Counted from the first letter of the stretch, positions 10,936 through 58,392 are shown. The stretch is DNA of 61,930 nt from Pirellulales bacterium (GCA_040397685.1 JBBAVM010000003.1:1-61930), one strand, 5' to 3'. Numbers and translations are program-made. The notes: generated by a model not told the origin, from the sequence alone.

Positions 10936-11793
10936 TTGAGCATCCATCCGCTGGCCGCCGTGAGTCCGGAAGCCCGCCTCGGCGCGGGGGTCACGGTCGG
11001 CGCCTTCGCCACGATCGAAGCGGGCGTCGAGCTCGGTGACTTCTGCGTCGTCGCCCCCGGGGCGATCCTGAAAAGCGGCGTCCGCGCCGGCTGCCACAAC
11101 GAATTCGGCGAGCACAGCGTCGTCGGCGGCGCGCCGCAGCACGCCGCGCGGCCGCAGCAGGTCGGCACGCTCGTGATCGGCGACCACAACGTGTTCCGTG
11201 AATACGTGACCGTGCACCGGGCGCTCAAAACCGACACGGCGACGATGATCGGCGATCACAACTACGTCATGGCAACCGCCCACGTGGGGCACGACTGCGT
11301 CGTCGGCAACAACTGCATCTTCGCCAACGGGGCGCTGCTCGGCGGCCACGTGACGGTCGAGGATCGCGCCTTCGTGTCGGGCGCCGTCGCGGTGCACCAG
11401 TTCTGCCGCATCGGCCGGCTGGCGATGGTGGGCGGCCACGCCCGCGTCGTACAGGACATTCCCCCGTACATGCTCGTGGACGGACAGAGCGGCTGCATCG
11501 TCGGCCTCAATATCGTCGGCCTGAAGCGCAGCGGACACGGGGCCGAAGAGATCGCCGAGCTCAAGGCCGCCTACCGCACCATCTACCGCCGCGGCCTGCC
11601 CTGGAAGCAGGTCCTCGAGACGCTCGAGCGGGAGTTCCACAGCGGCCCCGCCCTCAGTCTGCGGAACTTTCTCAACGCCGGCACCCGCGGATTCGCCCAG
11701 GAGCGACGCGCCCCGCCCGCCCCGACGCTGCGGCTGCGAGTGGCCGAAGAGGACGCGACGGGTGATCTCTCCGTGCGATCGCGGGCCGGCTGA
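10936..11793 (+). CDS. lpxA: Acyl-ACP--UDP-N-acetylglucosamine O-acyltransferase
   Basis: 285-aa ORF. Left-handed beta-helix hexapeptide repeats through ~190 aa, then the LpxA C-terminal helical domain (GLNIVGLKRSG...ELKAAYRTIYR). Confidence 0.88.
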   Translation: MSIHPLAAVSPEARLGAGVTVGAFATIEAGVELGDFCVVAPGAILKSGVRAGCHNEFGEHSVVGGAPQHAARPQQVGTLVIGDHNVFREYVTVHRALKTDTATMIGDHNYVMATAHVGHDCVVGNNCIFANGALLGGHVTVEDRAFVSGAVAVHQFCRIGRLAMVGGHARVVQDIPPYMLVDGQSGCIVGLNIVGLKRSGHGAEEIAELKAAYRTIYRRGLPWKQVLETLEREFHSGPALSLRNFLNAGTRGFAQERRAPPAPTLRLRVAEEDATGDLSVRSRAG

Positions 11794-11826
11794 CGCACCG
11801 CACGGCCGCGTCCCACGAGCATCGAC

Positions 11827-13050
11827 TCACGGGGCGCCGTCGCCAGGGTCTTCGTCCGCAGCCCGCCCCGGCCCGGCCTGACCGGTCGAGCCCGGTCCGT
11901 CGAGCCCGAACCGCTGGAGCTTGCGGCGGAGCACCGACCGGTCGATCCCGAGCAGTTTTGCCGCGAGCGACTTGTTTTGCATCGTGGCCGCGAGCGTGCG
12001 TTCCAGATGCAGCCGCTCGACATCGGCGAGCGTCGGCCACTCGTTGCCCACGGCGGCATCGCCCGGCCGTACCGCCGCCCCCGCCGGAGGGTGAGTCGGC
12101 GCGGCGGGCGGTGGAGGCGGCTTCACCGCCGGCTCGACACGAAACACGCCGGGCACCACCGTCGTGGAGAGGATGCCCTGGGCGGCGGCCTGTGCGAGCT
12201 GCGAGAGGTCGTGCGGCGCCGACTGGGGCGGCCCCGCCGCCGCCGCGACGTCGCCACCGTTCACCATGAATCCGCTCAAGGCCTCCGGGTCGATCTCGTC
12301 GCCGGACGAGAACATCACCGCGCGCTCGAGAACGTTTTCCAGTTCGCGGACGTTGCCCGGCCAGGCGTAGGCCTGCAACACGTCGAGGGCGGCCGGGGAC
12401 AGGGTGCATAGCGGCATGCCATGGCGGGCGGCGAGCTCCGCGAGATACCGGGCCGCCAACACGGGCACGTCCTCGGGACGATCCCTGAGCGGGAGGGTGC
12501 GGATCGTGACGACGTTCAGCCGGTAGTAGAGATCCTCGCGAAAGCGGCCCTGGCCGACCTCGCGGCCGAGGTCGCGATTCGTGGCGGCGACCACGCGGAC
12601 ATCGACGGGAATCTCGTCGTGGCTGCCCACGGGCACGACCGTCCGTTGCTGGAGCACCCGCAGGAGCTTGGCCTGCAGCTCCAGTTCCATCTCGCCGATC
12701 TCGTCGAGGAAGATCGTGCCGCCGTCGGCCGCGCGAAAACATCCGAGCGTGGAAGACGTGGCACCGGTGAACGAGCCCTTGACGTGCCCGAACATGTGGC
12801 TCGCGAACAGCGTGCCGGTCGTCACCGCGCAATCGACCGGAATGAACGGCTTCGCGGCCCGTTTGCCCGTGGCGTGGACGGCCCGGGCGATAAGTTCCTT
12901 GCCGGTGCCGCTCGGGCCGAGGATCAGCACGCTCGACTGGTGGGCGGCGACCAGCTCGATCGCCCGTCGCACCTGCTGGGCCCACGGCGACACCCCCGCG
13001 ATCCGATCGAGGGAGAATGCGGCGGCGCGGTGCTGGGAGACGCTTGGCAT
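11827..13050 (-). CDS. Sigma54-dependent transcriptional activator (bEBP) made only of an AAA+ domain and a Fis-type HTH
   Basis: Internal ATG (13050) of ORF 11827..14418: [29 protein letters not shown]... Walker [15 protein letters not shown]-loop variant [17 protein letters not shown]-terminal [28 protein letters not shown]. The AAA+ domain starts by about residue 15. Confidence 0.88.
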
Positions 13051-13299
13051 GGGACCGTCGTGATCGCCTTGGGCGCCAGTGAATTTAATGGGGAACTTCC
13101 TCGCACCATCCCCAATCCCTCGAAAATGTACCTTCTGCTGCGGCGACCCGCCATCGGGCGGTCCGGTTGCACCGGTCGAGCCGGTGGGATCGATTCCGGA
13201 AAAAAAGGCGGCCGAGCGTTCGCCTGCGGCGGAAAGATGGGCAAAGATTGAGGTGGTGGACGGTCGCCCACCCGTTGGAGTCCCTGGAGCCGCGCAGGC

Positions 13300-14631
13300 A
13301 TGGATCGGATGTCCGTCGTCACCGCCCCTGGCGTCCAGCTGCGCCGGCGTTCCGGCTGGCCGTGGCTGATCGGCCTCGCCGCCCTCGGCGGCCTCGGCTG
13401 GCTCGCGGCCGATCGCCTGCTCGTCGATCGGAGCCCGATCCTCGTCGGGCTGCTCCACTCGCAGACCGGGCCGATGGCGGTCAGCGAGACATCGATGATC
13501 GACGCCGAGGTGCTCGCGCTCGAAGAGATCAATGCGGCCGGCGGCCTCCTCGGGCGGCCGGTCCGTTGGGTGATCGCCGACGGGGCGTCCGATCCCCAGA
13601 CCTTCGCCCGGCAGGCCGAGAAATTGATTCACGAGGATCGCGTCTCGGTCGTGTTCGGCTGCTGGACGAGCGCCAGCCGGAAGGCCGTGCTGCCCGTGGT
13701 CGAGGCGGCCGATCATCTGCTCGTCTATCCGATGGCCTACGAAGGGCTCGAGCAGTCCCCCAACGTGATCTACACGGGCGCCGCTCCCAACCAACAGATC
13801 ACGCCGGCGGTCCAGTGGTGTTTCGACACGCTCGGCGCCCGGCGGTTCTTCCTCGTCGGGTCGGACTACATCTGGCCGCACTGCGTCAACGCGATCATCT
13901 CCGACCAGCTCGCCGGCCTGGGCGCCGAACGCGTCGGCGAGGCCTACATCCCCTTCGGCAGCACCGACGTCGAAGCCACGGTCAAGGAGATCATCGCGGC
14001 CAAGCCCGACGTGATCCTGAGTTCGGTCGTGGGCGACTCCGCCCTCGCCTTCGCGCGCCAGCTGCGGGCTGCGGGCCTCAAGTCGGAGGACGTGCCCGTC
14101 ATGATGTTCGCGATCGCGGAGGACGAACTGCGGACGGGCGACCGCGACGATTTCGCGGGCCATTACGCCGCCTGGAACTACTTCCAGAGCATCGGCCGGC
14201 CGGAGAACGAGGCCTTCGTCCGCAGTTTCAAGGCCCGGTACGGCAGCGACCGCACGACATCCGACGTGATCGAGTCGGCCTCCGCGAGCGTCCGGCTCTG
14301 GGCCCAGGCGGTCAACGAGGCCGCCACCACCGAGGTGCGGCAGGTGCGCAACGCCATGCGGTCGCAGAGCCTCGATGCCCCCGAGGGGATCATCTCGATC
14401 GATCCGGCCACACAGCACACCTGGCGGCCGGTGTCGATCGGACGGATCCGGCCCGACGGACAGTTCGACATCGTGTGGACGAGTCGCACCGCGGTGCGAC
14501 CGGTGCCGTTCCCGATCTCGCGGTCGCGCGAAGCCTGGGAGCAGTTCGTCTCCGACCTCTATCGGAAGTGGGGAGGCTCGTGGATCAACACGACGGCCCG
14601 GCCGGCCCGCGAACGGGAGGCCGCCCGATGA
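13300..14631 (+). CDS. Membrane-anchored UrtA/AmiC/FmdD-type (urea / short-chain amide) periplasmic solute-binding protein
   Basis: 443-aa ORF. N-terminal anchor [18 protein letters not shown]. Then [36 protein letters not shown]...[17 protein letters not shown]...[20 protein letters not shown]...[11 protein letters not shown]...AAWNYFQS...DAPEG...GQFDIVW, which closely follows the UrtA/AmiC consensus as I recall it. Confidence 0.82.
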
Positions 14632-16694
14632 CGACGTCCCTCACCACGCCCCCGGATGCCGCAGGACCCGCTGTCGCGCAGGCCATGCAACGCTCGATCG
14701 CCGGCCGCCTCTTGTTCTGGTTCCTCGTGATCGCCCTCATTCCGTGTGCGATCCTCACGGCGATCACGGCGCGCATCGCCACGCGGGCGCTCGAGAACTC
14801 GGTCCGCAACAACCTCGTGCACATCGCCGCGTCGAAGGCCCAGGAACTGGAGGCCTACGCGATCGAGCGGGTCCGGGAAGGCATGGCCACGTCGCGTGGG
14901 CCGACGATCGTCCGCGCGGTGCGCGAACTCACGGCCGAAGCCGGGCCCGCGACCGACGCGCTCGACGAGGTCCGGCGGGGCAAACTCGAGGCCGCCGGCC
15001 GGCTGTACGAGGAGTTTCTCGGATACGTCGCCGGCTCGTACGGCTATGCGGAAATCCTCCTGCTCGACGCCACCGGGCGCGTCGTGTTCTCGCTCGACAA
15101 ACAGATCCCGCTCGGCGGCTCCGTGCTCGCCGGCAGCCTGGCCGCCTCGGAACTGGCCGCCGCCTACGACCGGTCGCGGACGCTCCTGCAATCCGAACTC
15201 TCGGGCTTCCAGACCTACGGCGGCGGGCAGCGACCGCTGGCGTTCGTCACCAGCCCGGTCCTCTCCGAAGGGCGGGTCATCGGAGTGCTCGCCATGGGGC
15301 TCGGGCCGGAGCGGGTGTGGCAGGTTCTCTCCGATCTCAGCGGCCTCGGACGCACCGGCGAGATCGTGACCGGCGAACGCCGCGGCCAGACCATGCTGGT
15401 CACCTGCCCGCTCCGCCATGTGCCGGACGCGGCGTTCAAGCTCCAGATTCCACTGGGCGACAACGTCGCCACCGCCACGCAGAAGGCGGCCAGCGGGGGC
15501 CGCGGCTTCGGCCCGGCACGCGACTACCGCAACGCCGACGTGGTGGCCGCCTGGTGCTACCTGCCGAGTTTCCGCTGGGGCATGAACGTGAAGCAGGACG
15601 CCGCGGAGGCGTACGCGCTGGTGAACTTCCAACGCGCCGCGATTATCGGCCTCTCGCTGGCCACGATCCTCGGCGTGACGATCGCGGCGCTCGCCGTCGC
15701 CCGGACGCTCTCGGCGCCGATCCGCACGGCCGTGGACGTCGCGCGGCAGGTGGCCGGCGGCGACCTCCGGGCCCAGGTGGGCGTCACCAGCGACGACGAG
15801 ACGGGCGCCCTCCTGACCGCGATCCAGACGATGACCAACGACCTGCGCGGGCTGATCGGCCGGATCCAGAAATCGTCCGTCGCCCTGATCTCGACCGCGA
15901 CCGCGATCCAGGCCACGAGCAGCGAGCAGCAGCAGGTGATCGCCGACTACGGCGCCTCCACGAGCGAGGCGGTGGCCGCCGTCAAGCAGATCTCGGTCAC
16001 GAGCCAGGAACTCGTGCGCACCATGACCGAGGTCAACGACATGGCCGCGCGGACCGGCCGGATGGCCGCCGAGGGCCGGGGCAACCTCACCGGCATGGAC
16101 GCCACCATGCGGCAACTCGCCGAGAGCACGTCGTCGTTCGGCTCGAAGCTCGCCGTGATCAGCGAGCGTGCCGCCAACATCAACCTCGCCGTGACAACGA
16201 TCACCAAGGTCGCGGACCAGACGAACCTCCTCTCGATCAACGCCGCCATCGAGGCGGAGAAGGCCGGCGAGTACGGCCTCGGGTTCCTCGTCGTCGCCCG
16301 CGAGATCCGGCGGCTCGCCGACCAGACGGCCGTGGCGTCGCTCGACATCGAGCGGATGGTGAAGGAGATGCAATACGCCGTGTCGGCCGGCGTGATGGAG
16401 ATGGACAAGTTCGCCGAGCAGGTGCGGGGCGGCGTGCGCGAGATCGGCGACATCGCCGGCAAGCTCGGGGAGATCATCGGGGCGGTGCAGGGCATCTCCG
16501 GCCGCTTCGGCCAGGTGACCGAGGGGATGCGGGCCCAGTCGCAGGGCGCCGAGCAGATTCGCGAGGCGATGGTGCGGCTCGCGGAGGGGGCCTCGCGCAC
16601 GGCGGCATCGCTCGACGACTTCAACACGGCCACGATCCACCTGCGCGAGGCCGTCGGCGACCTCAAGGAGGAGGTCTCGCGCTTCACGATCTGA
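14628..16694 (+). CDS. Methyl-accepting chemotaxis protein (WspA position) with a large Cache-like periplasmic domain and HAMP
   Basis: ATG overlaps the binding-protein stop (ATGA). Two TM segments flank a ~290-aa domain ([19 protein letters not shown]). HAMP, then signalling hairpin [34 protein letters not shown]. Confidence 0.9.
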
Positions 16695-16709
16695 CGCGGG
16701 CCGCGGCCC

Positions 16710-17225
16710 ATGCACATCCTCACCTTCACCGTCGCCGGCCAGCCCTACGCGATTCCTTCACGCAAGGTGCTCGAGGTTCTTCCGCTGGTGCCCGCGCGGC
16801 CCGTTCCGCTCCTGCCCGACTACGTGTCCGGGGTGTTCACATACCGGGGCCAACTCGTGCCGCTGGTGGACCTCGGCCGCCGGTTCGGGGCGCCCGCGGC
16901 GGAGCATGCCGATCGGCGGCGGCTGAGCACCCGGGTGATCATCGTCGAGTTCGCAGGGCCCGCCCCTTCCGCCGACGCTCCGTCGGCCGTCGCCCCCCCG
17001 CGGATGCTGCGGCTCGGGCTGGTCGCCGACGACGTCGTCTCGATCCAGGAGACCATCGGAGACGAGGCGGCGCCGGCGGAGTCGTCGATGACCCACGCGC
17101 CGTTTCTGGGACGCCTCGTGCGTCTTCCCAGCGGCACGGTCCAGATGGTCGTGGTCGAATTCCTGCTGCCGGCGGACCTCGTGCAGGGCCTCGTCGCCGC
17201 CGTTGCCGGAGCCTCCGCATCATGA
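16710..17225 (+). CDS. cheW: CheW-like coupling protein (WspB position)
   Basis: 171-aa ORF: ILTFTVAGQPYAIPSRKVLEVLPL...GVFTYRGQLVPLVDL. Confidence 0.85.
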   Translation: MHILTFTVAGQPYAIPSRKVLEVLPLVPARPVPLLPDYVSGVFTYRGQLVPLVDLGRRFGAPAAEHADRRRLSTRVIIVEFAGPAPSADAPSAVAPPRMLRLGLVADDVVSIQETIGDEAAPAESSMTHAPFLGRLVRLPSGTVQMVVVEFLLPADLVQGLVAAVAGASAS

Positions 17226-18505
17226 CGAACACGGCCGTCCGTGATCCCGGCAGTTGCCCCTCGGCGGAAGACCTCCTCGCGCGCTGGATCGGCCTCGACG
17301 CCGACACGATCGGCTCGGCCTCGATCGCGCGGGCCGTGCGAACCCGCATGGACGCGCTCCGGCTCGTCGAGCCGGCTGCGGCCGTGGCCCGCGCCGAGGC
17401 CGACCCCGCCGAACGCGACCGGCTCGTCGAGGAGGTCGTCGTCGGCGAGAGCTGGTTCTTCCGCGACCCGCAGGTGTTCGCGTTCGTCAGCCGATTCGCC
17501 GCCGCGCGGGCTTCCCTGCCAGACCGCGGCCCGATCCGGATCCTCAGCGCCCCGTGCGCCGGGGGCGAGGAGCCCTACTCGATGGCGATGGCGCTCCTCG
17601 ACGCCGGCGTGGCGCCCGACCGGTTCGCCATCGACGCCATCGACGTCAGCCACCAGGCCCTCGATCGGGCCCGGGAGGGCCGCTATTCGGCGAACGCGTT
17701 CCGCAACGCCGACCTCTCGTTCCGCGACCGCTGGTTTCATCGCGACGGCGCCCAGTCCGTGCTCGACGAGGCGGTCCGCCGGCAGGTCCGGTTCCAGTGG
17801 GCGAACCTGCTCGACGATTCGTTCGTCACGACGGCGCTCGCCGCTGCGCATGCGCCCTACGACGTCGTGTTCTGCCGCAACCTCCTGATCTACCTGACGC
17901 CGCAGGCCCGCGGCACGGTGGAGCAGGTGCTCGACCGGCTCGTGACGGCCGACGGCCTGATCGTCCTCGGGGCCGCGGAGCCGCCGATCCTCAAAGGAGA
18001 GTGGATTCCTGCTGGCGATAGTTCGACGTTCGCCCTGCGCCGCGGCGTTCGCACCTTCGCCGTGCCGGCCCCGGTGCCGCCGCCGCGCCAGCGGCCGACG
18101 GCGCCCCAGCTCCCAGCTCGGCGCAGCGGCGCCACGGTGGCGACGACCACACCACCGACACCCGCGAGCGATGTCCCAGCGCGGCCGCTCGACGACGTGC
18201 TGCGCGAGGCGGGGGCGTTGGCCAACGCCCGGCGATTCACCGAGGCCCTCGCGGTGTGCGAGTCACACGCCCGGGCCGCCGGGCCGGCGCCGGAACTCTT
18301 CTTTCTCATGGGCATGGTGCATCAGTCGGCCGGCGATGCCGACCGTGCCGAGGGGTGCTTCCACAAGACGCTCTACCTCGATGCGTCCCACGACGAGGCC
18401 CTGCTCGCCCTCGCGCTCCTCGCCGGGCAACGTGGTGACGCCGTCATGGCGGAGCACTACCGGCGGTCGGCCGCCCAGATGCACGATCGGAAGGGCACGG
18501 CATGA
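17222..18505 (+). CDS. cheR: CheR-type MCP methyltransferase with C-terminal TPR domain (WspC position)
   Basis: ATG overlaps the cheW stop (ATGA). ESWFFRDPQVF, SAM motif ILSAPCAGGEEPYSMAM, VVFCRNLLIYL. Pro-rich linker, then TPR (FFLMGMVHQSAGDADRAEGCFHKTLYLDASHDEAL). Confidence 0.9.
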   Translation: MTNTAVRDPGSCPSAEDLLARWIGLDADTIGSASIARAVRTRMDALRLVEPAAAVARAEADPAERDRLVEEVVVGESWFFRDPQVFAFVSRFAAARASLPDRGPIRILSAPCAGGEEPYSMAMALLDAGVAPDRFAIDAIDVSHQALDRAREGRYSANAFRNADLSFRDRWFHRDGAQSVLDEAVRRQVRFQWANLLDDSFVTTALAAAHAPYDVVFCRNLLIYLTPQARGTVEQVLDRLVTADGLIVLGAAEPPILKGEWIPAGDSSTFALRRGVRTFAVPAPVPPPRQRPTAPQLPARRSGATVATTTPPTPASDVPARPLDDVLREAGALANARRFTEALAVCESHARAAGPAPELFFLMGMVHQSAGDADRAEGCFHKTLYLDASHDEALLALALLAGQRGDAVMAEHYRRSAAQMHDRKGTA

Positions 18506-19206
18506 GCAGCCTCGGCAAGACCGTGACCGCTCCGATGGAAGAGTGCTGGCGCCGGATCGGCGTGGCGGGCGATCGCAGTTGCCCGGAGCTGCAGACCTTC
18601 ATCCATTGCCGCAACTGCCCCGTGCTCGCGGACGCCGCCCGTACCTTCTTCGACCGCGAGGCGCCGGAGGGCTACCTCGAGGCCTGGAGCCGGATTCTCG
18701 AGGAGCCGGACGTCGCGGTGGCGACCGATGCCACGAGCGTCCTCGTGTTTCGCGTCGGCCGCGAATGGCTCGCCCTGCCCACCCACACCCTCGTCGAAAT
18801 CACGACCCTGCGACCGCTCCACCGCGTGCCCCATCGCACCGCTGGAGGGCTCTCAGGGCTCGTGAACATCCGCGGCCAACTGCAACTCTGCGTCTCGCTG
18901 CACGGTCTGATCGGCCTCGAAGACGCCCCCCCAGCGTTCCACGCCACCGACGAGGGTCCCACGGCCGCGCGGCTGCTCGTCATCGAACAGGCTACGGAAG
19001 CCGGCGGGGGTCGCTGGGTCTTCGCGGCCGACGAAGTCGCGGGCGTCCAGCGGATCGAGCGGTCCTCGCTGCGGGCGGTGCCCTCGACCGTCAGCCAGTC
19101 CACGGCCCATCTCTGCCAGGCGCTCTTCGACTGGCAGGACCGGTCGGTCGGCCTGCTCGACGAGACGCAGCTGTTCGACGGACTCCACGAACTGATCGCG
19201 CGGTAG
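18502..19206 (+). CDS. CheW-like protein with N-terminal four-Cys motif (WspD position)
   Basis: ATG overlaps the cheR stop (ATGA). CWRRIGVAGDRSCPELQTFIHCRNCPV, followed by a CheW fold (VLVFRVGREWLALPTHTLVEI...GLVNIRGQL). Confidence 0.85.
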   Translation: MSSLGKTVTAPMEECWRRIGVAGDRSCPELQTFIHCRNCPVLADAARTFFDREAPEGYLEAWSRILEEPDVAVATDATSVLVFRVGREWLALPTHTLVEITTLRPLHRVPHRTAGGLSGLVNIRGQLQLCVSLHGLIGLEDAPPAFHATDEGPTAARLLVIEQATEAGGGRWVFAADEVAGVQRIERSSLRAVPSTVSQSTAHLCQALFDWQDRSVGLLDETQLFDGLHELIAR

Positions 19207-19219
19207 CGGAGGAGACCAC

Positions 19220-21583
19220 GTGGCCGAGGACTTGAGCGGATTCTCGATGCTGGAGCTGTTCCGCCTCGAAGCGGAAGGGCAGACGGCGATCCTCTCCGCC
19301 GGCGTGCTGGCCGTCGAGGAGCTGGAACGCTCCCCCGAGACGATCGAGGCGATGATGCGGGCCGCGCACTCGCTCAAGGGGGCCGCGCGGATCGTGGGAC
19401 TCGATCCGGCGGTGCGGGTGGCGCACGCGATGGAAGACTGCTTCGTCGCCGCGGGCAAAGGCCAGTTCCGCGTGCGTCCTGAACATGTCGATCTCCTGCT
19501 GGCGGCCGTCGATTTTCTCGCGACCATCGCCCGGGCCGACGACGCGCTCGCGCCGGAGAGCCGCTGGGCCGCCACGGCCGACGCGCTCGTCACCGAGCTC
19601 GGAGCGCTCCTGGAGCCTGTGAGCCCATCGACCACCGGTGTGCCGGTTCCCCCCGTCGCCGCGGCTCCGGTCACCGCCGCTGCTCCCTCCACCGTGCCCC
19701 CGGCGCCGCCTGCGGAGACCACGCCGCCGACCGCGAAGCCGGCCCAGCAGGCTGCCGAGGAGCGGCCGGCCGCCGAACCGCCGCCGCCGGCCGCAGCCCC
19801 GGCCGGCTCGGCACGGGCCATCGAGCAAGCCGACCGCGTCGTGCGCGTCTCGGCCGACAGCCTGACGAGACTCGTCGGCCTTGCGGGCGAGTCGCTCGTG
19901 GAGACCAAGCAACTGCGTCCGTTCGTGGATTCGCTCCTCAACCTCCGCGCCGCCCAGGTCGAACTCTGCGACACGATCGCCGCGGTCGAGGAGCGATTCA
20001 AGACCGACGACGCGGCGATCCCCGCGCCCCTGGTGGGCCTGGTCGCGCGGGTCCGCGAGCGGGCCGACGCCTGCCTGACAACGCTCATGAAGCAGGTGGA
20101 CGATCTCGAGAGTTTCGCCCGGCGCAACGAGGACCTCTCGAACCGCCTCCACCACGAGGTGATCGCGAGCCGGATGCGGCCGCTCGCCGACGGCATCCGC
20201 GGCTTCCCCCGGCTCGTCCGCGACGTCGCCCGCACGCTTGGAAAACAGGTGCGGTTCGAGGTCCGGGGCGAGCAGACCGGCGTCGACCGCGACATTCTCG
20301 ACAAACTCGAGGCTCCGCTCTCGCACCTCATCCGCAACGCCCTCGACCACGGCCTCGAGACGCCGCAGGAGCGCGAGGCGAGCGGCAAGCCGCCCATCGG
20401 CACGATCCGCCTCGAGGCCCGCCACCGCGCCGGCATGCTCCACATCACACTCACCGACGATGGCCGCGGCATCGACGTCGAGAAACTCCGCGCCCGCGCG
20501 GTCACGCGGGGGCTCGTGGCCCGGCAGGTGGCCGAGCAATTGACGGAACTCGAACTGCTCGAATTCCTCTTCCTGCCGGGCTTCTCCACGAAGGACCAGG
20601 TCACGGAGATCTCGGGCCGGGGCGTCGGCCTCGACGTCGTCCAGAGCATGGTGAAGGGCGTGGGCGGCACCGTGCGGGTGACGACGCAGCCGGGCCGGCA
20701 GACCGTGTTCACGCTGCAATTGCCGATCACGATGTCGGTGATCCGGGCACTGCTGGTCGAGATCGGCGGAGAGCCCTACGCCTTTCCGCTCACCCGTATC
20801 GACAACATCCTCGAATGCCGCCACACGGACGTGCGGACGGTGGAGGGGCGCCAGTACTTCGACCGCGACGGCGTCTCGATCGGCCTCGTGTTCGCGGCGC
20901 AGATCCTCGACATGCCCGGCCGCGAGCAGCCGGCCGACCCGATGCCCGTGGTCGTGATCAGCGACCGGGGCCAGCAGTTCGGCATGATCGTCGATGCCTT
21001 CCTCGGCGAGCGCGACCTGGAGGTGCGTCCGCTCGACCGCCGGCTCGGCAAGGTGCCGGACATCAACAGCGCGTCGCTCCTCGAAAACGGCAACCCGGTG
21101 CTGATCGTGGACGTCGAGGATCTCGTCCGCTCGATCGACAACGTGCTCGCCGGCCGCCGGCTGTCGCGGGTGGAGTTCGAGCAGTTGGCGGAGCAGTCGC
21201 GGCGCCGCAAGAGGATTCTCGTGGTGGACGACTCGATCACGGTCCGGGAACTGGAGCGGCAGCTGCTCCAGGCCCGCGGTTTCGCCGTGGACGTGGCGGT
21301 GGACGGCATGGACGGCTGGAACACCTTCCGGGGCGCCCACTACGATCTCGTGGTCACCGACGTGGACATGCCGCGCATGGACGGCATCGGGCTGGTGACG
21401 CTGATCAAGAACGACGCGACGCGCAGGGATGTTCCGGTGGTCATCGTCTCCTACAAGGATCGCGAGGAGGACCGGCTCCGCGGGCTGGACGCCGGGGCGA
21501 ACCGCTATCTCACGAAGAGCAGTTTCCACGACGAGACGTTCGTGCGTACGATCATCGACCTCGTGGGAGAGCCCCTGACGTGA
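19220..21583 (+). CDS. cheA: Hybrid CheA histidine kinase with C-terminal receiver domain (WspE position)
   Basis: GTG start after GGAGGA. Hpt AHSLKGAARIVG, long Pro/Ala linker, RVVRVSADSLTRLVGLAGE dimerisation region, HATPase (NALDHG...DDGRGID...GRGVGLD), CheW-like domain, REC (ILVVDDS...VVTDVDMPRMDG...YLTKS). Confidence 0.93.
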   Translation: MAEDLSGFSMLELFRLEAEGQTAILSAGVLAVEELERSPETIEAMMRAAHSLKGAARIVGLDPAVRVAHAMEDCFVAAGKGQFRVRPEHVDLLLAAVDFLATIARADDALAPESRWAATADALVTELGALLEPVSPSTTGVPVPPVAAAPVTAAAPSTVPPAPPAETTPPTAKPAQQAAEERPAAEPPPPAAAPAGSARAIEQADRVVRVSADSLTRLVGLAGESLVETKQLRPFVDSLLNLRAAQVELCDTIAAVEERFKTDDAAIPAPLVGLVARVRERADACLTTLMKQVDDLESFARRNEDLSNRLHHEVIASRMRPLADGIRGFPRLVRDVARTLGKQVRFEVRGEQTGVDRDILDKLEAPLSHLIRNALDHGLETPQEREASGKPPIGTIRLEARHRAGMLHITLTDDGRGIDVEKLRARAVTRGLVARQVAEQLTELELLEFLFLPGFSTKDQVTEISGRGVGLDVVQSMVKGVGGTVRVTTQPGRQTVFTLQLPITMSVIRALLVEIGGEPYAFPLTRIDNILECRHTDVRTVEGRQYFDRDGVSIGLVFAAQILDMPGREQPADPMPVVVISDRGQQFGMIVDAFLGERDLEVRPLDRRLGKVPDINSASLLENGNPVLIVDVEDLVRSIDNVLAGRRLSRVEFEQLAEQSRRRKRILVVDDSITVRELERQLLQARGFAVDVAVDGMDGWNTFRGAHYDLVVTDVDMPRMDGIGLVTLIKNDATRRDVPVVIVSYKDREEDRLRGLDAGANRYLTKSSFHDETFVRTIIDLVGEPLT

Positions 21584-21593
21584 GACTGCCGGC

Positions 21594-22595
21594 ATGAGGA
21601 TCGGGATCGTCAACGACGTGCGCGCCGCCTGCGAGGCACTGCGCCGAGTCGTGGACAGCCTGCCCGACCACGAGGTCGCCTGGACGGCGGCCGACGGGGT
21701 CGAGGCGATCGCGATGGCGAAACGCGACCGCCCCGACCTGATCCTCATGGACCTGATCATGCCGCACCTCGACGGCGTGCAGGCGACACGGCAGATCATG
21801 GCGTCGGCGCCGTGCGCGATCCTGGTCGTCACGGCCACCGTGAGCGGCAACATCTCGCTGGTCTACGACGCGATGGGCTTCGGCGCCCTCGACGCGGTCG
21901 ATACGCCCATGCTCGGCCCCGCGGGCGAGGTGAGCGGCGCGGGAGCGCTCGTGGAAAAGATCGGCATGATCGCCAAGCTCGTCGGCGCCACGGAGTCGCG
22001 TCGGCCGGCCCGGCCGACGCCCGCATCCGGGCCGCCGAAGCTCGTGGTCGTGGGCGCCTCGACGGGCGGCCCGAAGGCGGTCTCCGACCTGCTCCTGCCG
22101 CTGCCGCGCGACTGGAACGTGGCGGTGGTGGTGGTGCAGCACGTCGATATCGCGTTTGCCCAGGGGCTCGCCAAGTGGCTGGGCGACCGGACGGGCCGGC
22201 CGGTGCGCGTGGCGGAGCACGGCCAGCAACCCGTCGGTGGCGACGTGCTTCTCGCCGGCACGAACGACCATCTCGTCCTCTCGAAGTCCCGCACCCTGGA
22301 GTACCGCGAGGAACCCCGCGACGTGTTCTTCCGCCCGAGCGTGGACGTGTTCTTCGAGAGCGTCGCGGAGCACTGGCCGCAGACCGGCACCGCCCTCCTG
22401 CTCACGGGCATGGGAAAGGATGGCGCCCGCGGGCTCTTGAAGTTGCGGTCGCGCGGCTGGCACACGATCGCGCAGGACGAGGCCTCGAGCGTCGTGTGGA
22501 GCATGCCGAAGGCGGGAATCGATCTCGGCGCCGCGACCGAGGTCCTGGCGGTCGATCAGATGGCCAGATCGCTCGTCGCGCGGCTCACCGTCTGA
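21594..22595 (+). CDS. cheB: CheB-type methylesterase/deamidase response regulator (WspF position)
   Basis: REC domain (IGIVNDV...LILMDLIMPHLDG) plus methylesterase domain (VVVGASTGGPKA...VVVQH...GMGKDG). Confidence 0.92.
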   Translation: MRIGIVNDVRAACEALRRVVDSLPDHEVAWTAADGVEAIAMAKRDRPDLILMDLIMPHLDGVQATRQIMASAPCAILVVTATVSGNISLVYDAMGFGALDAVDTPMLGPAGEVSGAGALVEKIGMIAKLVGATESRRPARPTPASGPPKLVVVGASTGGPKAVSDLLLPLPRDWNVAVVVVQHVDIAFAQGLAKWLGDRTGRPVRVAEHGQQPVGGDVLLAGTNDHLVLSKSRTLEYREEPRDVFFRPSVDVFFESVAEHWPQTGTALLLTGMGKDGARGLLKLRSRGWHTIAQDEASSVVWSMPKAGIDLGAATEVLAVDQMARSLVARLTV

Positions 22596-24039
22596 CGGCG
22601 CCGGCTTCGATCGCCGCCATCGCCTCGAGCGCGGTCGCCTCGCCCCCGGTGAGCGCGATCACCTGCACGCCGACGGGCAGGCCCCGGCTGCCCCGATCCG
22701 TGAGCGCGGCCGCGCGGGCGATCGGATCGCGGTCCGCGGCCCGGCCGCCCTCCTCGTCGGAGCCCACGGTCGTCACGGGCACGGCTCCGGCGGCGAGGTC
22801 GAGCAGGTTGGCGAGCAGGCACGGGAACGCGGCCGGCAGCAATCGGGCGGCCGTGCCGTGCCGCAGGGCCGGCAGGGCCGACACCGGACAGACGATCGCA
22901 TCGCACCGGGCCGCGAGGTCGCGCACTCGGATGGCGAGGTCTGCCCGGGCCGCGAGCACGCGCTCGAGCGCCGCCCGGGCCCGCGGCCCCGTGGCGCGGA
23001 GTGCCTCGGCCTCGATGCGGCGGCCCGTAAGGTCCGCGAGCCCGGCGAGCCAGCGACGCCGAGGTTCCGGCAGCCGGGCCAGGCGCAACAGCCGTGCGAC
23101 GCCCGGGATCGGCCGCGTGCCGCCGAACAGCCGGCGGATGTCGGCGCCTCCGTCGGCGGAAAGGATGGCGAGCAGGATCCAGGCGGCCTCGAGCCCCAGC
23201 CCGCCGTCGAGGGGCACCATGCGGTAGCCGCCGGCTTCGAGCGTTGCCACGGCCTCGTGCACGCCCCGGCTGATCGCCGGCGAGGGCGGAAGCACGCCCG
23301 CATCGGTCCACCACCCGATGCGGCGCAGTGGCGGGGCGGTCGTGAGCCCGTCACCTCCAGGCACGAGCGCCGCATACGCCAGTGCGAGGTCGGACACGCT
23401 CCGCGCGAGAAAGCCGGCCCGCGGACGCACGACCGCGAGGTGCGGGACCGTGTCGAACGCGCCCCCCTCGCCGAGGACGCTCGTGCGCGGCAGCAGCCCC
23501 GCGATGCCGCAGGCGTGCGCCGGCTGCCGGATCGAGCCGGCGAGGTCGGTGCCGACCGCGAGGGGCACGACGCCGGCCGCCACGAGCGCGGCGTCCCCAC
23601 CGCTCGAACCTCCCGGACCACGGTCGGCCGCGAGGGGATGGATCGTGCGGCCCCAGACCGGATTGTCGGTCTCGTGGAGATACATCGCCTGCGGCACGTT
23701 CGCCTTGCCCACGAGGACCGCCCCGGCAGCCCGCAACCGCACGACGATGTCGGCGTCGTGGTCGTCCGGACCGCTGCGGCCCGGGATGCCGAGCGTGGTC
23801 TCGAGGCCCTGAACGGCGAAACACTCCTTGACGCTGACCGGCACCCCGCCCAGCGGCAGACCGGCGACGGCCCCGATCTCGGCGGCGGCCGCGGCATGCC
23901 GCGGCTGGACGAGCGCGTTCACGCGCGGGTGGGTCGCGCGGTGCCGGGCGACGTGGTCGGCCAGCACCTCGGCCGGGGTCAGGTTACCGGCGGCCACGGC
24001 CGCGACGATCTCCGTGGCCGCGGCGGCTCCGCCGCTCAA
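22585..24039 (-). CDS. Amidase-signature (AS) family amidase
   Basis: Frame of ORF 22585..24306, but start placed at TTG 24039, which overlaps the upstream gene's stop (TTGA). SGGAAAATEIVAAVAAGNLTPAEV..., catalytic VSVKECF, GGSSGG, DLAGSIRQPA. The 3' end overlaps the cheB 3' end by 11 nt (convergent). Confidence 0.85.
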   Translation of the reverse strand: MSGGAAAATEIVAAVAAGNLTPAEVLADHVARHRATHPRVNALVQPRHAAAAAEIGAVAGLPLGGVPVSVKECFAVQGLETTLGIPGRSGPDDHDADIVVRLRAAGAVLVGKANVPQAMYLHETDNPVWGRTIHPLAADRGPGGSSGGDAALVAAGVVPLAVGTDLAGSIRQPAHACGIAGLLPRTSVLGEGGAFDTVPHLAVVRPRAGFLARSVSDLALAYAALVPGGDGLTTAPPLRRIGWWTDAGVLPPSPAISRGVHEAVATLEAGGYRMVPLDGGLGLEAAWILLAILSADGGADIRRLFGGTRPIPGVARLLRLARLPEPRRRWLAGLADLTGRRIEAEALRATGPRARAALERVLAARADLAIRVRDLAARCDAIVCPVSALPALRHGTAARLLPAAFPCLLANLLDLAAGAVPVTTVGSDEEGGRAADRDPIARAAALTDRGSRGLPVGVQVIALTGGEATALEAMAAIEAGAVRR

Positions 24040-25730
24040 AAAAGATCCTCGACGGGGGCGACTTTCTTGGCGATCGTCCGGCAATCGCTCGCCCACACGA
24101 CGTCGCCGTCGAAGAGCACGCCCGTGACCATCACGGTCTCGCCGGTCTCGGCCACCGGCTCCGATCGGGAGATCACCGAGACGCTCCGCGGCTCCGTGCC
24201 CTGCACGGTGATGCGAGACGACCAGTACGGTCCGACCTTGCGTGCGCCCTCGAACGTCGCGAGGAGCACCGCGCCGTCGGCGGGACGGCGGCGGGATGCG
24301 AGCCACATCCCGCTCAGCTTCTCGAGCTCCGCCTGCATGGTGGCATCGGCCCCCACGGCGGCGCCGAGCGCCACGACGCCATCGAGCGTCCCGTCGAGAC
24401 TGCGGCCGGAATCGGCGGCGACTTTCTCGAGCAGGACCAGTTGCTCCGCGACGGCGGCGAGCCGCTTGTACCAGCCGACGAGCAGCTTGCGGCGGTCGGG
24501 TGATTCCGGATCGGAAGCCGAGAGCTCCTCGAACGCAGCGGTGGCGTCTCCGACGGCGGCGTCGAGATCCGAGACATCGAGCGGCTCCGGTTCGGGCGGC
24601 GTCACCGGCACCGGCACCGGCGGCGTCTTCATGGCGACGTCGCCGAGCGGTGGGGCCGGCTGGGACTCGGGCGCCGGTTCCGTGGGGGCAGGTGCGGGTT
24701 CCGTCGCCGCGGTGACCGCCGCAGGCTTCGCAGATTCGGCGGGAGCCGGATCGGGTTCGCGGGGGTCCGGGAGAGGCGGCTCCGGTTCGGGAACGACCGG
24801 CGTCTCGCCCGCCTCGGGCTCGGCGGCGGTGGACAGGTTGTCGAGCGGAGAGGCCGCGTCGAGCTTCGGGCCCGACATCTTCTTCGAGCCGCCGGGCTGA
24901 AACTTTTGCGGCAGCAGAAACGCCACCTCCTGCGGCAGCATGCCCGTGAGCTTGAACGGATCGCGCTGGAAGCCCCAGAGCAGGATCGCGTACGTGATCG
25001 GAATCGCCATCAGGCCGCCGAGCACGATGCCGATGAGTTGGCCGAGTCCGCCCCCCTGCGCACGGGCCGCCCGCGTCGCGGCCGGCGCGACCGCCGGTGC
25101 GACTGCGGCTCCGGCAACCGCCATGTCGTCTGCATGAGCGTCATCGGACGCCGGCGCACCGAAAGGAATCGCATCGCCAGACTCGCTCGCCCCGTCGAAA
25201 CCCGAGGCATCGAACGACGGCTGCTCGTCGGTGGAAAAATCGTCGTTCGACGTCTCCGCCGCGAGGGCGTCGGCCCAGTCGTCGGCCGCCGTGATGTCGC
25301 TCGTCGGATCGACCTCGCTCGCGGAGACGACCCCCGACATGCCGGTGCCGAGTTCGACGTGCGACGAGCCCACCGCACCCGGGATTTGGTCAGCGGAGGC
25401 GTGCAGATCGTCCGGGGCGGAAAAATCACCGAAAGCGGAGGCGTCATCGTAAGCCTCGGGAAACGCCGGCGCCGGCTCGGTGGCGTCGGCTTCGGCCGAC
25501 GGAAACACCGCCAGCGGAGGCTCGCCCATCGGGACGACGTCCGGTTCCTCGAGCCAGGCGGAAACATCGCCCAGGTCATCTGCAGCGGCATCGGGCTTGA
25601 GCGACTCCACCGCATCGGCATCGCCCGTGGTGTCGAACGAAAACGTGAAGCCCTCGTCGGCCTGCCCTTCGCCCTCGTTTCCGATACCCGCCCAGGGATC
25701 GGGCGCCGAGTCGTCTTTGTCGTCCACCAT
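24036..25730 (-). CDS. Hypothetical single-pass membrane protein: highly acidic N-terminal region, Pro-rich linker, C-terminal globular domain
   Basis: Start at MVDDKDDSAPDPW (25730) within ORF 24036..25955; upstream codons overlap the carboxypeptidase 3' end. ~260 aa are D/E/A/S-rich. TM segment LGQLIGIVLGGLMAIPITYAILLWGF. No family recognised. Confidence 0.6.
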   Translation of the reverse strand: MVDDKDDSAPDPWAGIGNEGEGQADEGFTFSFDTTGDADAVESLKPDAAADDLGDVSAWLEEPDVVPMGEPPLAVFPSAEADATEPAPAFPEAYDDASAFGDFSAPDDLHASADQIPGAVGSSHVELGTGMSGVVSASEVDPTSDITAADDWADALAAETSNDDFSTDEQPSFDASGFDGASESGDAIPFGAPASDDAHADDMAVAGAAVAPAVAPAATRAARAQGGGLGQLIGIVLGGLMAIPITYAILLWGFQRDPFKLTGMLPQEVAFLLPQKFQPGGSKKMSGPKLDAASPLDNLSTAAEPEAGETPVVPEPEPPLPDPREPDPAPAESAKPAAVTAATEPAPAPTEPAPESQPAPPLGDVAMKTPPVPVPVTPPEPEPLDVSDLDAAVGDATAAFEELSASDPESPDRRKLLVGWYKRLAAVAEQLVLLEKVAADSGRSLDGTLDGVVALGAAVGADATMQAELEKLSGMWLASRRRPADGAVLLATFEGARKVGPYWSSRITVQGTEPRSVSVISRSEPVAETGETVMVTGVLFDGDVVWASDCRTIAKKVAPVEDLF

Positions 25731-25827
25731 GATGTCCTCGCCGGCCGCGAAATGCTTCTCGAAATCAACCCCGCAAAAGTCTACCACCGGCCAAAGACGG
25801 AGGGAAAACGACCGGCGGGCGACGGGC

Positions 25828-29932: not shown

Positions 29933-30574
29933 TTACACGAGGCCGCGGCGGACGGCCCAGACGGCGGCCTGCGTGCGGTCCGAAACGGCGATCTTTCGCA
30001 GGATGTTCTGCACGTGCTCCTTCACGGTCTCGACGCTGATCGTCAGCGATTGCGCGATCTCCTTGTTGGAGAGGCCGAGGGCCATGTGGCGGAGCACCTG
30101 CGTCTCCCGCTGCGTGAGCGGGATGTCGGGATCGGGCGTGGCCACGCGATTGGCCATGGTCGTGGCGACCCGCCGCAGTTCGCCGGCCCGCATCGGCAAC
30201 TGCCCCGTGGCCGCGCCGGTGATCGAGTTGATCAGTTCGCTGCGGGTCGAGCCCTTGAGCATGTAGTCGTGGGCGCCGGCGGCGACGGCCCGGGCCACGT
30301 ACGTCGGGTTGTCGAACGTGGAGAGCATGACGCAGCGGACGTTCGGCATGTCGGCCCGAATTTTTTCCAGGGCCGCCAGGCCGTCCTTGCCGGACATGCG
30401 AATGTCGAGCAGGACGACGTCGGGCTTGAGTTTCTTCGTGAGTTTGACCGCCTCGTCGCCGGTGGCCGCCTCGCCCACGATCTTGACCTCCGACCCGGCC
30501 AGCAGGCTGACCAAACCCCGGCGGACGACCTCATGGTCGTCGGCGATTACAACTTTGACTGCCATGGCTTTCAT
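29933..30574 (-). CDS. NarL/LuxR-family response regulator
   Basis: REC domain (VVIADDHEVVRRG...VVLLDIRMSGKDG) plus LuxR HTH (LTQRETQVLRHMALGLSNKEIAQSLTISVETVKEHV). Confidence 0.9.
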   Translation of the reverse strand: MKAMAVKVVIADDHEVVRRGLVSLLAGSEVKIVGEAATGDEAVKLTKKLKPDVVLLDIRMSGKDGLAALEKIRADMPNVRCVMLSTFDNPTYVARAVAAGAHDYMLKGSTRSELINSITGAATGQLPMRAGELRRVATTMANRVATPDPDIPLTQRETQVLRHMALGLSNKEIAQSLTISVETVKEHVQNILRKIAVSDRTQAAVWAVRRGLV

Positions 30575-34146: not shown

Positions 34147-34587
34147 ATGCGGATCAATACCACCAGATTCGGGCGGATCGACGTCGATGCCGCCGACGTC
34201 CTGACGTTCCCGAGCGGCCTGCCCGGACTCGAGGATTGCCGCGAGTGGGCGCTGCTCGCCGACGCGTCGAACGACGCCCTCGGTTGGCTGCAGAGCACGA
34301 CCCGGGGCGACATCGCGCTCGCCGTCGTCAGCCCCCGGCGATTCGTGCCCGACTACCAGGTGCGGATTCCGCGCAGCGAACTCACACCCTTGTCGATCAC
34401 CGACATCCGGCAGGCCCAGGTCGTGCTCGTCGTCGGGCAGAACGGCAGAACCCTCACGCTCAATTTGAAGGCGCCAATCGTCATCAACCTCGAAGCCCGC
34501 ACGGGCCGTCAGGTCGTTGCGAGCGGCGAGCTTCCGCTGCAGTTCGAACTCGCCACCCACCAACCCACGCTCAAAAAGAGCGCATAA
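34147..34587 (+). CDS. fliW: Flagellar assembly factor FliW (CsrA antagonist)
   Basis: MRINTTRFGRIDVDAADVLTFPSGLPGLEDCREWALL...LNLKAPIVIN. Lies directly upstream of csrA. Confidence 0.88.
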   Translation: MRINTTRFGRIDVDAADVLTFPSGLPGLEDCREWALLADASNDALGWLQSTTRGDIALAVVSPRRFVPDYQVRIPRSELTPLSITDIRQAQVVLVVGQNGRTLTLNLKAPIVINLEARTGRQVVASGELPLQFELATHQPTLKKSA

Positions 34588-34650
34588 TGACAGTGACCGC
34601 CGGCGGAGGACTCCGCCCGCGCCACGAAAGGATTCAGGAAGGACCCTCCG

Positions 34651-34935
34651 ATGCTCGTACTTTCCAGGCAACGCGACGAAAGCATCATGATCGGCGACAA
34701 CATCGTCGTCACGATCGTGGACATCCGAGGGGACAAGGTCCGGCTGGGCATCAACGCACCGTCCGAGATCCCGGTGCACCGCCAGGAGGTCTACGAGGCC
34801 ATCCAGCGGGAAAACCTCCGGGCCTCGCGGCTGGAGCCGGGTGACACGCAGGGCATCGGTCGGCTCGCCGGCCGCGGTCCGGCCGCAGGCCAGCCCACCC
34901 CGCAAAACCGCCCCACCGACGGCCCGCGCCGGTAG
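34651..34935 (+). CDS. csrA: Carbon storage regulator CsrA (copy 1, FliW-associated) with extended C-terminal tail
   Basis: [51 protein letters not shown]. Confidence 0.93.
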
Positions 34936-52226: not shown

Positions 52227-52241
52227 AAACCCATCCGAAGT

Positions 52242-52311
52242 CCCTCGCTCGCGCGTCGGGCTCCCGTCATCCCACGAAAGCCCCCACGAAAGCCCGCAGC
52301 GCAAGCAAGGG
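52242..52311. repeat. Hairpin-plus-array intergenic repeat, locus 3 (opposite orientation, 2 array units)
   Basis: ccctcgctcgcgcgtcgggctcccgtc, then cccacgaaagcc x2 (52271-52294), then cgcagcgcaagcaaggg. Confidence 0.75.
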
Positions 52312-52332
52312 CCTCCTCACCGCATCACGACA

Positions 52333-56918: not shown

Positions 56919-56965
56919 CTCCGTGTGAGGATCTGCACAGCCCAGAACCGGGCCATGGTCGATCG

Positions 56966-58369: not shown

Positions 58370-58392
58370 CGGCGACCCCGTGGAGTCGTAGG

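Follow-up and report, generated by a model that had tools for sequence, protein, structure and literature searches.

The 61,930 nucleotides of Pirellulales bacterium DNA analysed here (GCA_040397685.1, JBBAVM010000003.1:1-61930, in the following called the window) contain an operon of seven co-directional genes at 13300-22595, which begins with the gene for a solute-binding protein resembling UrtA and AmiC and continues with six genes in the order of the Wsp chemosensory system of Pseudomonas. The question raised by this locus is what a binding protein of the urea-transport type does in front of a chemosensory pathway when no transporter genes accompany it, and where the signal goes when no output regulator follows. 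Our answer, to which we give a probability of roughly 0.6, is that the operon provides a dedicated and transporter-independent chemical input on a Wsp-type core of the alternative-cellular-function (ACF) class, working by the mechanism proposed below.

Organisation of the operon

The G+C content of the window is about 70% and open reading frames (ORFs) are therefore abundant, so the real genes were chosen by the G+C content at the codon positions and their translations were scanned against Pfam and NCBIfam. The genes follow each other in the order binding protein, methyl-accepting chemotaxis protein (MCP), CheW, CheR with a tetratricopeptide repeat (TPR) tail, a second CheW with a cysteine motif, a hybrid of CheA and a receiver domain (REC), and CheB. 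ATGA overlaps are found at 14628-14631, 17222-17225 and 18502-18505, and the remaining intergenic gaps are 15, 13 and 10 nt. This gene order, the three ATGA junctions and other gaps of 10-15 nt had been described in an earlier note made from the sequence alone, and were reproduced by the gene calls and domain scans. The operon start given there, 11827, was wrong; this position is the stop codon of a σ54 activator gene on the minus strand, so that the first 1.5 kb of the earlier span lies on the other strand, and the true start is 13300.

All seven genes are intact and have a strong coding signal, with a G+C content at third codon positions of 0.86-0.93, and the key residues (the Hpt histidine, the receiver aspartate and the GASTGG motif of CheB) can be read in the translations. 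The genes are kept across at least nine relatives with 47-94% protein identity, the signalling domain of the receptor being 90-94% identical.

The chemosensory core

The MCP gene (14628..16694, +) encodes a transmembrane chemoreceptor of 688 residues with a first transmembrane segment, a dCache-type periplasmic sensor, a second transmembrane segment, a HAMP domain and a WspA-type MCPsignal domain, the hydrophobic segments being located at residues 22-52 and 334-365. It is followed by the genes for a WspB-like CheW coupling protein of 171 residues (16710..17225, +; CheW domain 81.5 bits), a WspC-like CheR methyltransferase of 427 residues (17222..18505, +) with a TPR-like C-terminal tail that matches NCBIfam TPR models at residues 336-423, and a WspD-like CheW of 234 residues (18502..19206, +), which has its CheW domain at residues 80-226 and the N-terminal cysteine motif CWRRIGVAGDRSCPELQTFIHCRNCPV. 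The WspE-like hybrid kinase (19220..21583, +; 787 residues, GTG start) contains Hpt, HATPase_c, CheW and REC domains according to Pfam, and both the HSLKG histidine in Hpt and the DD..D..S..K residues of the receiver are readable. The last gene (21594..22595, +) encodes a WspF-like CheB methylesterase of 333 residues with CheB_methylest and Response_reg domains by Pfam; model NF009206 is passed with 426 bits against a cutoff of 342, and the general CheB model is not passed. The TPR tail on CheR and the CheA-receiver hybrid, both claimed previously, were found in these domain scans.

The order MCP, CheW, CheR with TPR, CheW, CheA with REC, and CheB is that of a Wsp operon. As comparator the pAZKH record of Azoarcus sp. 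KH32C was used, in which the annotated MCP, CheW, CheR, CheW, hybrid kinase, CheB and diguanylate cyclase form a canonical wspABCDEF-wspR operon. The first CheW is 36% identical to Azoarcus WspB over its full length, CheR is 40% identical to WspC over residues 18-415 with the tail included, the second CheW is 42% identical to WspD over its full length, the hybrid kinase is 49% identical to WspE over 788 aligned positions and CheB is 54% identical to WspF over its full length. A tblastn search of plasmid and chromid records with the second CheW gave homologues in Burkholderia, Ralstonia, Cupriavidus, Azoarcus and others, where the matches start at residue 8-15 and thus include the Cys-rich extension, and the motif CW..IG..GDRSC....(H/R)C.NCPV is common to the window protein and the WspD proteins of Azoarcus and B. 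cenocepacia.

The receptor can be aligned with Azoarcus WspA only over residues 292-688, with 42-50% identity in the cytoplasmic part, and its last 287 residues align with zero gaps at 50% identity, indicating that the two receptors belong to the same length class. Its periplasmic sensor is not of the WspA type but dCache_1-like (E 1.4e-8; 35 bits, below the Pfam gathering score of 45), and homologous sensors at other loci pass this score, for example with 54.7 bits at L032. Fusions of CheR to TPR mark ACF clusters (PMC3447774). The likeness to WspA-B-C-D-E-F noted earlier is borne out by gene order and by homology to an operon containing wspR, and judged from the sequences the six che genes are true Wsp homologues and the core is of Wsp type. 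In every sequence-based comparison the core agrees with Wsp, but it lacks the two features on which the biology of Wsp depends, namely a sensor of the WspA type and an output through WspR or WspH.

The binding protein

The first gene of the operon (13300..14631, +) encodes a UrtA/AmiC-like solute-binding protein of 443 residues with a Peripla_BP_5 match of 500 bits. An Arg-rich stretch at its N-terminus is followed by a hydrophobic segment, which is either a signal peptide or an anchor. The score against the UrtA model TIGR03407 is 468.3 bits, under the cutoff of 492.75. The closest solved structures are 8TG1 (390 bits) and the cyanobacterial UrtA structures 7S6E, 7S6F and 8HIC (312-320 bits), followed by AmiC, 1PEA (190 bits). 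Structure 8TG1, deposited in PDB as 'Extracellular ligand-binding receptor', has a urea-type pocket and clusters with transporter-linked proteins. Close homologues with 70-86% identity are plentiful in metagenomes, where they are named planctomycete urea-transport binding proteins. No homologue of the Urt permease and ATPase proteins UrtB, UrtC and UrtD is present in the window, in agreement with the earlier description of a binding protein without urtBCDE-like genes.

Binding-protein and sensor pairs in other genomes

GTDB was scanned, with one genome per species, using the alignment of the binding protein as query. The best 80 loci, with 48-82% identity, were kept, and they span Planctomycetota, Acidobacteriota, Verrucomicrobiota, Cyanobacteria, Nitrospirota, Alpha-, Gamma- and Zetaproteobacteria and others. 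At 59 of the 80 loci the binding-protein gene is followed by a sensor gene, the product of which has about 400 N-terminal residues homologous to the sensor and HAMP region of the window receptor; urtBCDE is located directly downstream at four loci, and in four cyanobacterial loci the binding domain is fused to a kinase. The transmitter of the 59 sensors is an MCP signalling domain in 25 cases, HisKA-HATPase in 22 (with or without receiver and Hpt, including one GAF-histidine kinase and counting L028) and a SpoIIE/PP2C phosphatase in three, and the last nine are cut by a contig end or gave no match to the transmitter-domain probes used.

The tree built by neighbour joining from the binding proteins agrees with that from the sensor domains, with r = 0.85 over 1711 pairs, a value inflated by the shared species phylogeny, and the kinase-linked sensor of L022 nests among MCP-linked sensors; together this indicates that transmitters are swapped while the pair of binding protein and sensor persists. 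By these comparisons the binding protein is one half of a phylum-spanning module of binding protein and dCache sensor, and not an oddity added to Wsp. The earlier note had made its view depend on conservation of the block, and in the neighbourhood survey the block is kept as a unit in relatives; for three close homologues synteny with the window extends over the entire region, starting at a giant TPR protein and LpxA and passing through the activator and all seven genes as far as the amidase.

Other forms of the module were also seen. Five alphaproteobacterial loci (L051, L058, L069, L070 and L086) have the binding protein and a dCache hybrid kinase directly upstream of a second UrtA, only about 40% identical to the sensor-type binding protein, and urtBCDE, an arrangement suggestive of a two-component system that senses urea and controls its uptake. 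An extra receiver match is located between the pair and the second UrtA in L051, L069 and L070, and L058 has an upstream REC and AAA+ (NtrC-like) match. In the cyanobacterial loci L063, L079, L083 and L084, proteins of about 975 residues (for instance L079, 9956-12883) are direct fusions of a UrtA-like domain, its urea pocket intact, to HisKA-HATPase-REC. The N-terminus of the fusion has no hydrophobic segment, and it may be a cytoplasmic urea-sensing kinase.

Ligand pocket

In the structure of UrtA with urea, nine residues surround the ligand; Asn246 and Gln144 form hydrogen bonds to N1 through their side chains, N2 is bound by Gln144 through its main chain and by Ser122 through its side chain, the oxygen is bound by Tyr190 and by the main chain of Ser122, and mutation of Ser122, Gln144, Tyr190 or Asn246 reduces or abolishes urea binding (PMC10392092). 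The corresponding residues of the window protein, assigned by transfer through alignments, are W122 S124 Y143 M145 A146 E148 Y190 W192 V244 A271. Compared with the UrtA contacts W120 S122 Y141 Q144 E146 Y190 N246 S274, five are kept (W, S, Y, E and Y), whereas Gln144 is replaced by Ala146, Asn246 by Val244, Ser274 by Ala271, Phe192 by Trp192 and Ile/Val by Met145. In the columns of Gln144 and Asn246 AmiC has Pro107 and Val, both apolar as in the window.

This pocket, defined as M-A...W...V/A/P...A/S and called M-type, is found at 27 of the 80 loci. The M-type sequences, the window protein and two extra relatives make up a monophyletic clade of 30 with zero exceptions. The gene that follows is an MCP gene in 22 of the 27 loci and a sensor of histidine kinase (HK) type in two, and in three the sensor is cut by the contig end; no urtBCDE is present within the fetched flanks of any of them. 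The exact UrtA pocket is kept in all transporter-linked proteins, in all fused kinases and in nearly all proteins linked to kinases or PP2C, and in the tree the sensor-linked binding proteins form clades apart from the urtBCDE-linked ones and the crystallised UrtA. L060 and L076 have a pocket of a third kind (W S Y T Q E S Y V S) and no recognisable sensor or transporter downstream; L076 has two σ54-activator genes upstream.

In three respects, namely the TIGR03407 score, the urtBCDE context and the urea pocket, the window protein departs from a transport UrtA. Contacts remain for the C(=O)NH2 half of urea and apolar residues now stand where the second amino group was contacted, which is the pattern expected if this -NH2 becomes an alkyl group or hydrogen. 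From this pattern we infer that the ligand would be a short-chain amide rather than urea. For the sensing of a small nitrogen compound suggested in the earlier note, a small amide is a likelier ligand than urea, as the N1 contacts are replaced.

Output of the pathway

No PP2C, STAS or RsbW-like gene was found in the window with the proteins of relatives as queries, which gave only receiver-domain matches, and no GGDEF-type output was found there. With a local receiver-domain profile, receivers in the 62-kb window were detected only in CheA, CheB and an orphan NarL/LuxR-type response regulator (REC and GerE; 29933..30574, -), and the operon has neither a terminal REC-GGDEF gene (WspR) nor a 5' REC-HK gene (WspH). 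No stand-alone receiver protein other than this NarL-type regulator is encoded in the window; its gene is located 7.3 kb beyond cheB, and no kinase gene is seen beside it. Contrary to the earlier statement, the σ54 activator is accordingly not the only regulator nearby. That no WspR-type GGDEF regulator or stand-alone receiver comes after cheB was correct. A convergent amidase gene follows in the window and in every close relative examined, with no output gene in cis.

More distant relatives differ in this respect. Directly after cheB a REC-SpoIIE/PP2C protein of 394-406 residues is encoded in L023 (Planctomycetota), L043 (Gammaproteobacteria) and L045 (Pseudomonadota), and the three are 51-54% identical over their full length, indicating that they are orthologues. 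A STAS gene adjoins the REC-PP2C gene in L043, and in L045 a STAS gene is located immediately upstream of the binding-protein gene and a gene for an RsbW-like kinase heads the divergent che operon. The operon of L089, a clean long-read contig, consists of binding protein, dCache MCP, CheW, CheR-TPR, CheW, CheA-REC, a DinB insertion, CheB and REC-SpoIIE; its seven proteins in common with the window are 29-64% identical, and its binding protein has the M-type pocket. L043 contains, at 11043-18053, genes for an MCP, a 148-aa ORF without Pfam match, CheR-TPR, CheB, REC-PP2C and STAS, and neither CheA nor a WspD-like gene was found in the fetched 21 kb. The cultured planctomycete Tautonia sociabilis GM2012 (L029, 9944-19341) has the same seven-gene operon, with DUF1501 and no REC-PP2C after cheB and a TetR gene upstream, and it could serve as an experimental entry point.

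The catalogued outputs of CheR-TPR/ACF clusters include REC-phosphatase regulators (PMC3447774), and the surveyed Wsp systems of Beta- and Gammaproteobacteria all use WspR or WspH (PMC8552884). As only these two outputs are recognised in that survey, the relatives with REC-PP2C represent a third Wsp output type. The orthologous REC-PP2C gene at the end of their operons occupies the place of WspR in Pseudomonas, indicating that the output of the family is protein dephosphorylation and partner switching and not cyclic di-GMP (c-di-GMP). The most economical reading would be that the ancestral operon ended in a REC-PP2C regulator feeding a partner switch, and that this gene was lost from the operon of the window's clade and independently from that of Tautonia. 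A homologue search with the L023 protein gave only sequences at least 79% identical (Isosphaeraceae-like, close to L023), and hence did not reach the clade of the window; no REC-PP2C orthologue of that clade was among them. The lack of an output gene resembles a loss or relocation specific to this lineage, and the output regulator of the window's clade is most likely encoded elsewhere. Of the non-canonical output proposed previously, the lack of an output regulator in cis therefore stands, whereas its cause is likely to be this loss or relocation, as relatives keep the REC-PP2C gene.

Proposed mechanism and alternative explanations

In the mechanism that we propose, the exported or membrane-tethered binding protein would capture a small neutral primary amide (acetamide-like R-CO-NH2 with apolar R), more likely than urea. 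The closed, liganded protein would then dock on the dCache domain that the co-translated receptor exposes in the periplasm, on the principle of LuxP/LuxQ and BasB/BasT, and the receptor, arrayed by the WspB- and WspD-like couplers, would alter the autophosphorylation of the WspE-like CheA-receiver hybrid, with CheR-TPR and CheB giving methylation-based adaptation. In the ancestral complete operon the phosphoryl group would pass to the REC-PP2C regulator, which would dephosphorylate a STAS-type antagonist in a partner-switching cascade; in the window's clade this regulator would no longer be in the operon, the output being most likely encoded elsewhere. The comparisons above show the gene content, the homology to Wsp, the conserved pairing of binding protein and sensor, the substitutions in the pocket and the REC-PP2C genes of relatives; the physical contact of binding protein and receptor, the identity of the ligand and the route of the phosphate in this clade are what we infer.

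Several points weigh against this mechanism. The dCache_1 score of the window receptor is below the gathering score, the mirror-tree correlation is inflated as stated above, and the trees are neighbour-joining trees with no support values. The ligand is deduced from four or five pocket positions solely through alignment, and Tautonia has a urea-type pocket although its sensor clusters with the partners of M-type proteins, indicating that there is no strict coupling between the types of pocket and sensor. At 14 loci the pair of binding protein and MCP has no che genes in the fetched flank, and the receptor could thus also feed another pathway. An unlinked REC-PP2C, or other partner, in the window's clade is an assumption.

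An ordinary urea-transport UrtA might double as an input for chemotaxis, in the way that maltose-binding protein serves Tar, with its permease encoded elsewhere. The protein is indeed far closer to the structures on the UrtA side (312-390 bits for 8TG1, 7S6E, 7S6F and 8HIC) than to AmiC, its score is just 24 bits below the TIGR03407 cutoff, and source records name its homologues 'urea transport system substrate-binding protein'. We nevertheless regard this as quite unlikely, considering that substitutions affect three residues of the pocket, two of which are among the four at which mutation weakens or eliminates the binding of urea, that the sensor-linked proteins fall in clades separate from the urtBCDE-linked ones and crystallised UrtA, that neither the window nor the flanks of the 27 M-type loci contain urtBCDE, and that the gene is part of a receptor operon and not of a transporter operon. 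A flagellar taxis pathway for amide or urea chemotaxis, with CheY encoded elsewhere, is unlikely. Genes for FliW (34147-34587) and CsrA (34651-34935) are found nearby, and many relatives keep the pair of binding protein and MCP away from che operons, but the operon contains no CheY, CheZ, CheC or CheD, and related operons end in REC-PP2C and not in CheY. The CheA-receiver hybrid, the CheR-TPR and the homology of all proteins to Wsp components also argue against taxis, CheR-TPR clusters being of the ACF type (PMC3447774).

The σ54 activator (11827..13050, -; 407 residues) could itself be the output in the window's clade, replacing the lost REC-PP2C and controlled in trans, like PspF, by some component of the chemosensory complex. 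Its Pfam domains are AAA+ (Sigma54_activat, residues 18-183) and HTH_8 (residues 340-381), with no receiver and no N-terminal regulatory domain, so that it must be regulated in trans or be constitutive; the scans thereby agree with the previous account of a divergent activator without a receiver. It is divergent and adjacent in every close-clade genome examined, and wspH, the alternative Wsp output gene of Burkholderia, is also located 5' of its operon (PMC8552884). The adjacency is however explained by synteny of the whole region, as the activator adjoins the operon only in loci where the giant TPR protein, a small TPR protein and LpxA are also syntenic, and it is absent beside the system in L023, L025, L029, L043, L045 and L089. 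No σ54 promoter is found in the shared intergenic region 13051-13299 with two or fewer mismatches, and σ54-like sites in the whole window are below chance (39 against 52.6 expected). We know of no mechanism joining a CheA or a receiver domain to a receiver-less activator, and this output is improbable. Hardly credible is that the operon is a decaying, functionless remnant after loss of its response regulator; the lack of a cis output gene in the window and in any close relative would fit, but the seven genes are intact, with their third-position G+C content, key residues and degree of conservation among the relatives all as given above.

The preferred mechanism of a dedicated amide input on a Wsp-type core can be extended to a wider proposition, namely that the pairs of UrtA-like protein and dCache sensor are an undescribed, phylum-spanning family of dedicated extracytoplasmic urea and amide sensors with interchangeable transmitters, that one sub-clade switched to amide and feeds a third Wsp type with REC-PP2C, and that the window's clade signals non-canonically via the kinase receiver or the σ54 activator; as a whole this is tentative, and we doubt that all of it holds.

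It has been difficult to establish what Wsp senses in nature; for Pseudomonas the current candidates are contact with surfaces and stress on the envelope. Here a Wsp-type core is found with a predicted small-molecule input through a dedicated binding protein. To the known Wsp outputs WspR and WspH, a REC-PP2C partner-switch type is added. The pairing of binding protein and dCache sensor across phyla may be a common bacterial route for sensing urea and related nitrogen compounds, and if this is true, the products of genes annotated 'urea ABC transporter substrate-binding protein' would in many cases be sensors. The switch of the two pocket residues that hold one urea nitrogen would be a compact example of how ligand specificity evolves in this fold.

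Upstream region and neighbouring genes

A conserved 20-nt element, GGAAAGATGGGCAAAGATTG (13231..13250, +), is located 50 nt upstream of the ATG of the binding-protein gene. No second copy is present in the window, 0 chance matches being expected, and the element is the sole conserved block in an intergenic alignment of seven relatives, being kept in all close relatives. The element contains the direct repeat AAAGAT-N4-AAAGAT and fits neither the σ54 nor the σ70 consensus; as a σ54 promoter it was rejected, since the spacing from GG to GC is one base short and the GC is not conserved. It probably serves as promoter or operator of the operon or of the binding-protein gene. A degenerate form is found upstream of unlinked pairs of binding protein and MCP in L010, L017, L018 and L020, which have no adjacent activator, and the element does therefore not implicate the activator. 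The operon leader gave no Rfam match to a riboswitch or other RNA, the 250-nt interval between activator and operon contains no σ70 consensus, and internal σ70-type promoters and terminators in 12900-24400 were not above chance.

The gene convergent on cheB (22585..24096, -) encodes an amidase-signature enzyme of about 503 residues (PF01425, 254 bits), with a start probably at 24096 and not at 24306; it ends at 22585, and the 11-nt overlap with cheB reported before was reproduced. Its position beside cheB is confined to the close clade, and it is possible that it provides a metabolic link to an amide ligand. As the adjacency of both activator and amidase accompanies synteny of the whole region, it gives no specific signal of linkage, and the two were rejected as evidence for conserved partners. 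A 639-aa protein without Pfam match is encoded directly downstream of the amidase gene and overlapping it (24036-25955, -), and a gene of similar size (577-617 aa) is present at the same position in L002 and L004-L006.

The rest of the window is housekeeping, with genes for NADH dehydrogenase, haem synthesis, LptF/G, FliW-CsrA and others. The FliW-CsrA gene pair (34147-34935, +), for control of flagellin synthesis, indicates that the organism has a flagellar system. A single ORF of 868 aa (52126-54732, +), for which the first-start call is maybe too long, has CT_C_D, CT_A_B and LamB_YcsF domains, which correspond to the three 5-oxoprolinase components (PxpB-PxpC-PxpA), apparently fused. Region 56001-60000 has a G+C content of 0.64 compared with about 0.70 elsewhere, and its genes include a thioredoxin-like AhpC/TSA fusion and a pyridoxal phosphate-dependent enzyme.

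Comparison with known systems

The Wsp system of Pseudomonas (the 'R-system', WspA-F with WspR) has the same gene order, homologous proteins, the WspD cysteine motif and a signalling domain that aligns without gaps, but the window receptor has a dCache sensor and is preceded by a binding-protein gene, and REC-GGDEF is lacking, relatives having REC-PP2C at that place. The 'H-system' of Burkholderia resembles the window in having no regulator that makes c-di-GMP in the operon, another protein carrying the output (PMC8552884). This protein, WspH, is a 5'-adjacent REC-histidine kinase, whereas the 5' neighbour in the window is the receiver-less σ54 activator and no REC-HK is present. In the searchable literature, from which most subscription journals are excluded so that the evidence is weak, no description was found of a Wsp core with binding-protein input or REC-PP2C output, nor of the pairing of UrtA-like binding proteins with dCache sensors.

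With the partner switches of RsbU/V/W type, which have REC-PP2C regulators, the relatives of the operon share a terminal REC-SpoIIE/PP2C gene with adjacent STAS and RsbW-like genes, and none of these is present in the window. The HptB-HsbR-HsbA system of Pseudomonas is another partner-switching cascade with a REC-PP2C regulator.

UrtA (8HIC, 7S6E, 7S6F) belongs to the same fold family as the window protein and has five of nine pocket residues in common with it; the window protein differs in its lack of urtBCDE, its score under the TIGR03407 cutoff, its four pocket substitutions and its separate clade. AmiC (1PEA), the acetamide sensor of Pseudomonas aeruginosa, is like the window protein a binding-protein fold used only for sensing, with an apolar pocket pair and an amidase gene near, but it is only distantly similar, and the resemblance is confined to the pocket. 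AmiC is cytoplasmic and acts on the antiterminator AmiR, and the amidase of its operon belongs to the nitrilase superfamily and not to the amidase-signature family. The window protein differs from it in having an N-terminal hydrophobic segment, and no AmiR-like ANTAR domain was found among the about 40 window ORFs scanned, small ORFs being outside the scan.

The principle of the input is known from binding-protein/transducer pairs such as BasB/BasT and CosB/CosT of Halobacterium salinarum, BasB belonging to the related family Peripla_BP_6 (table in PMC8050422). In these two pairs and in LuxP/LuxQ of Vibrio, as in the window, the binding-protein gene adjoins that of a dCache-like transducer or kinase and signalling takes place without a transporter, and the window has exactly this arrangement of an adjacent, co-oriented binding-protein gene and a dCache-like receptor with no transporter. 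The transducers BasT and CosT signal to flagellar taxis and LuxQ acts as a kinase, whereas in the window a binding protein of the UrtA/AmiC-like subfamily of Peripla_BP_5, with another class of ligand, is joined to a Wsp-type core.

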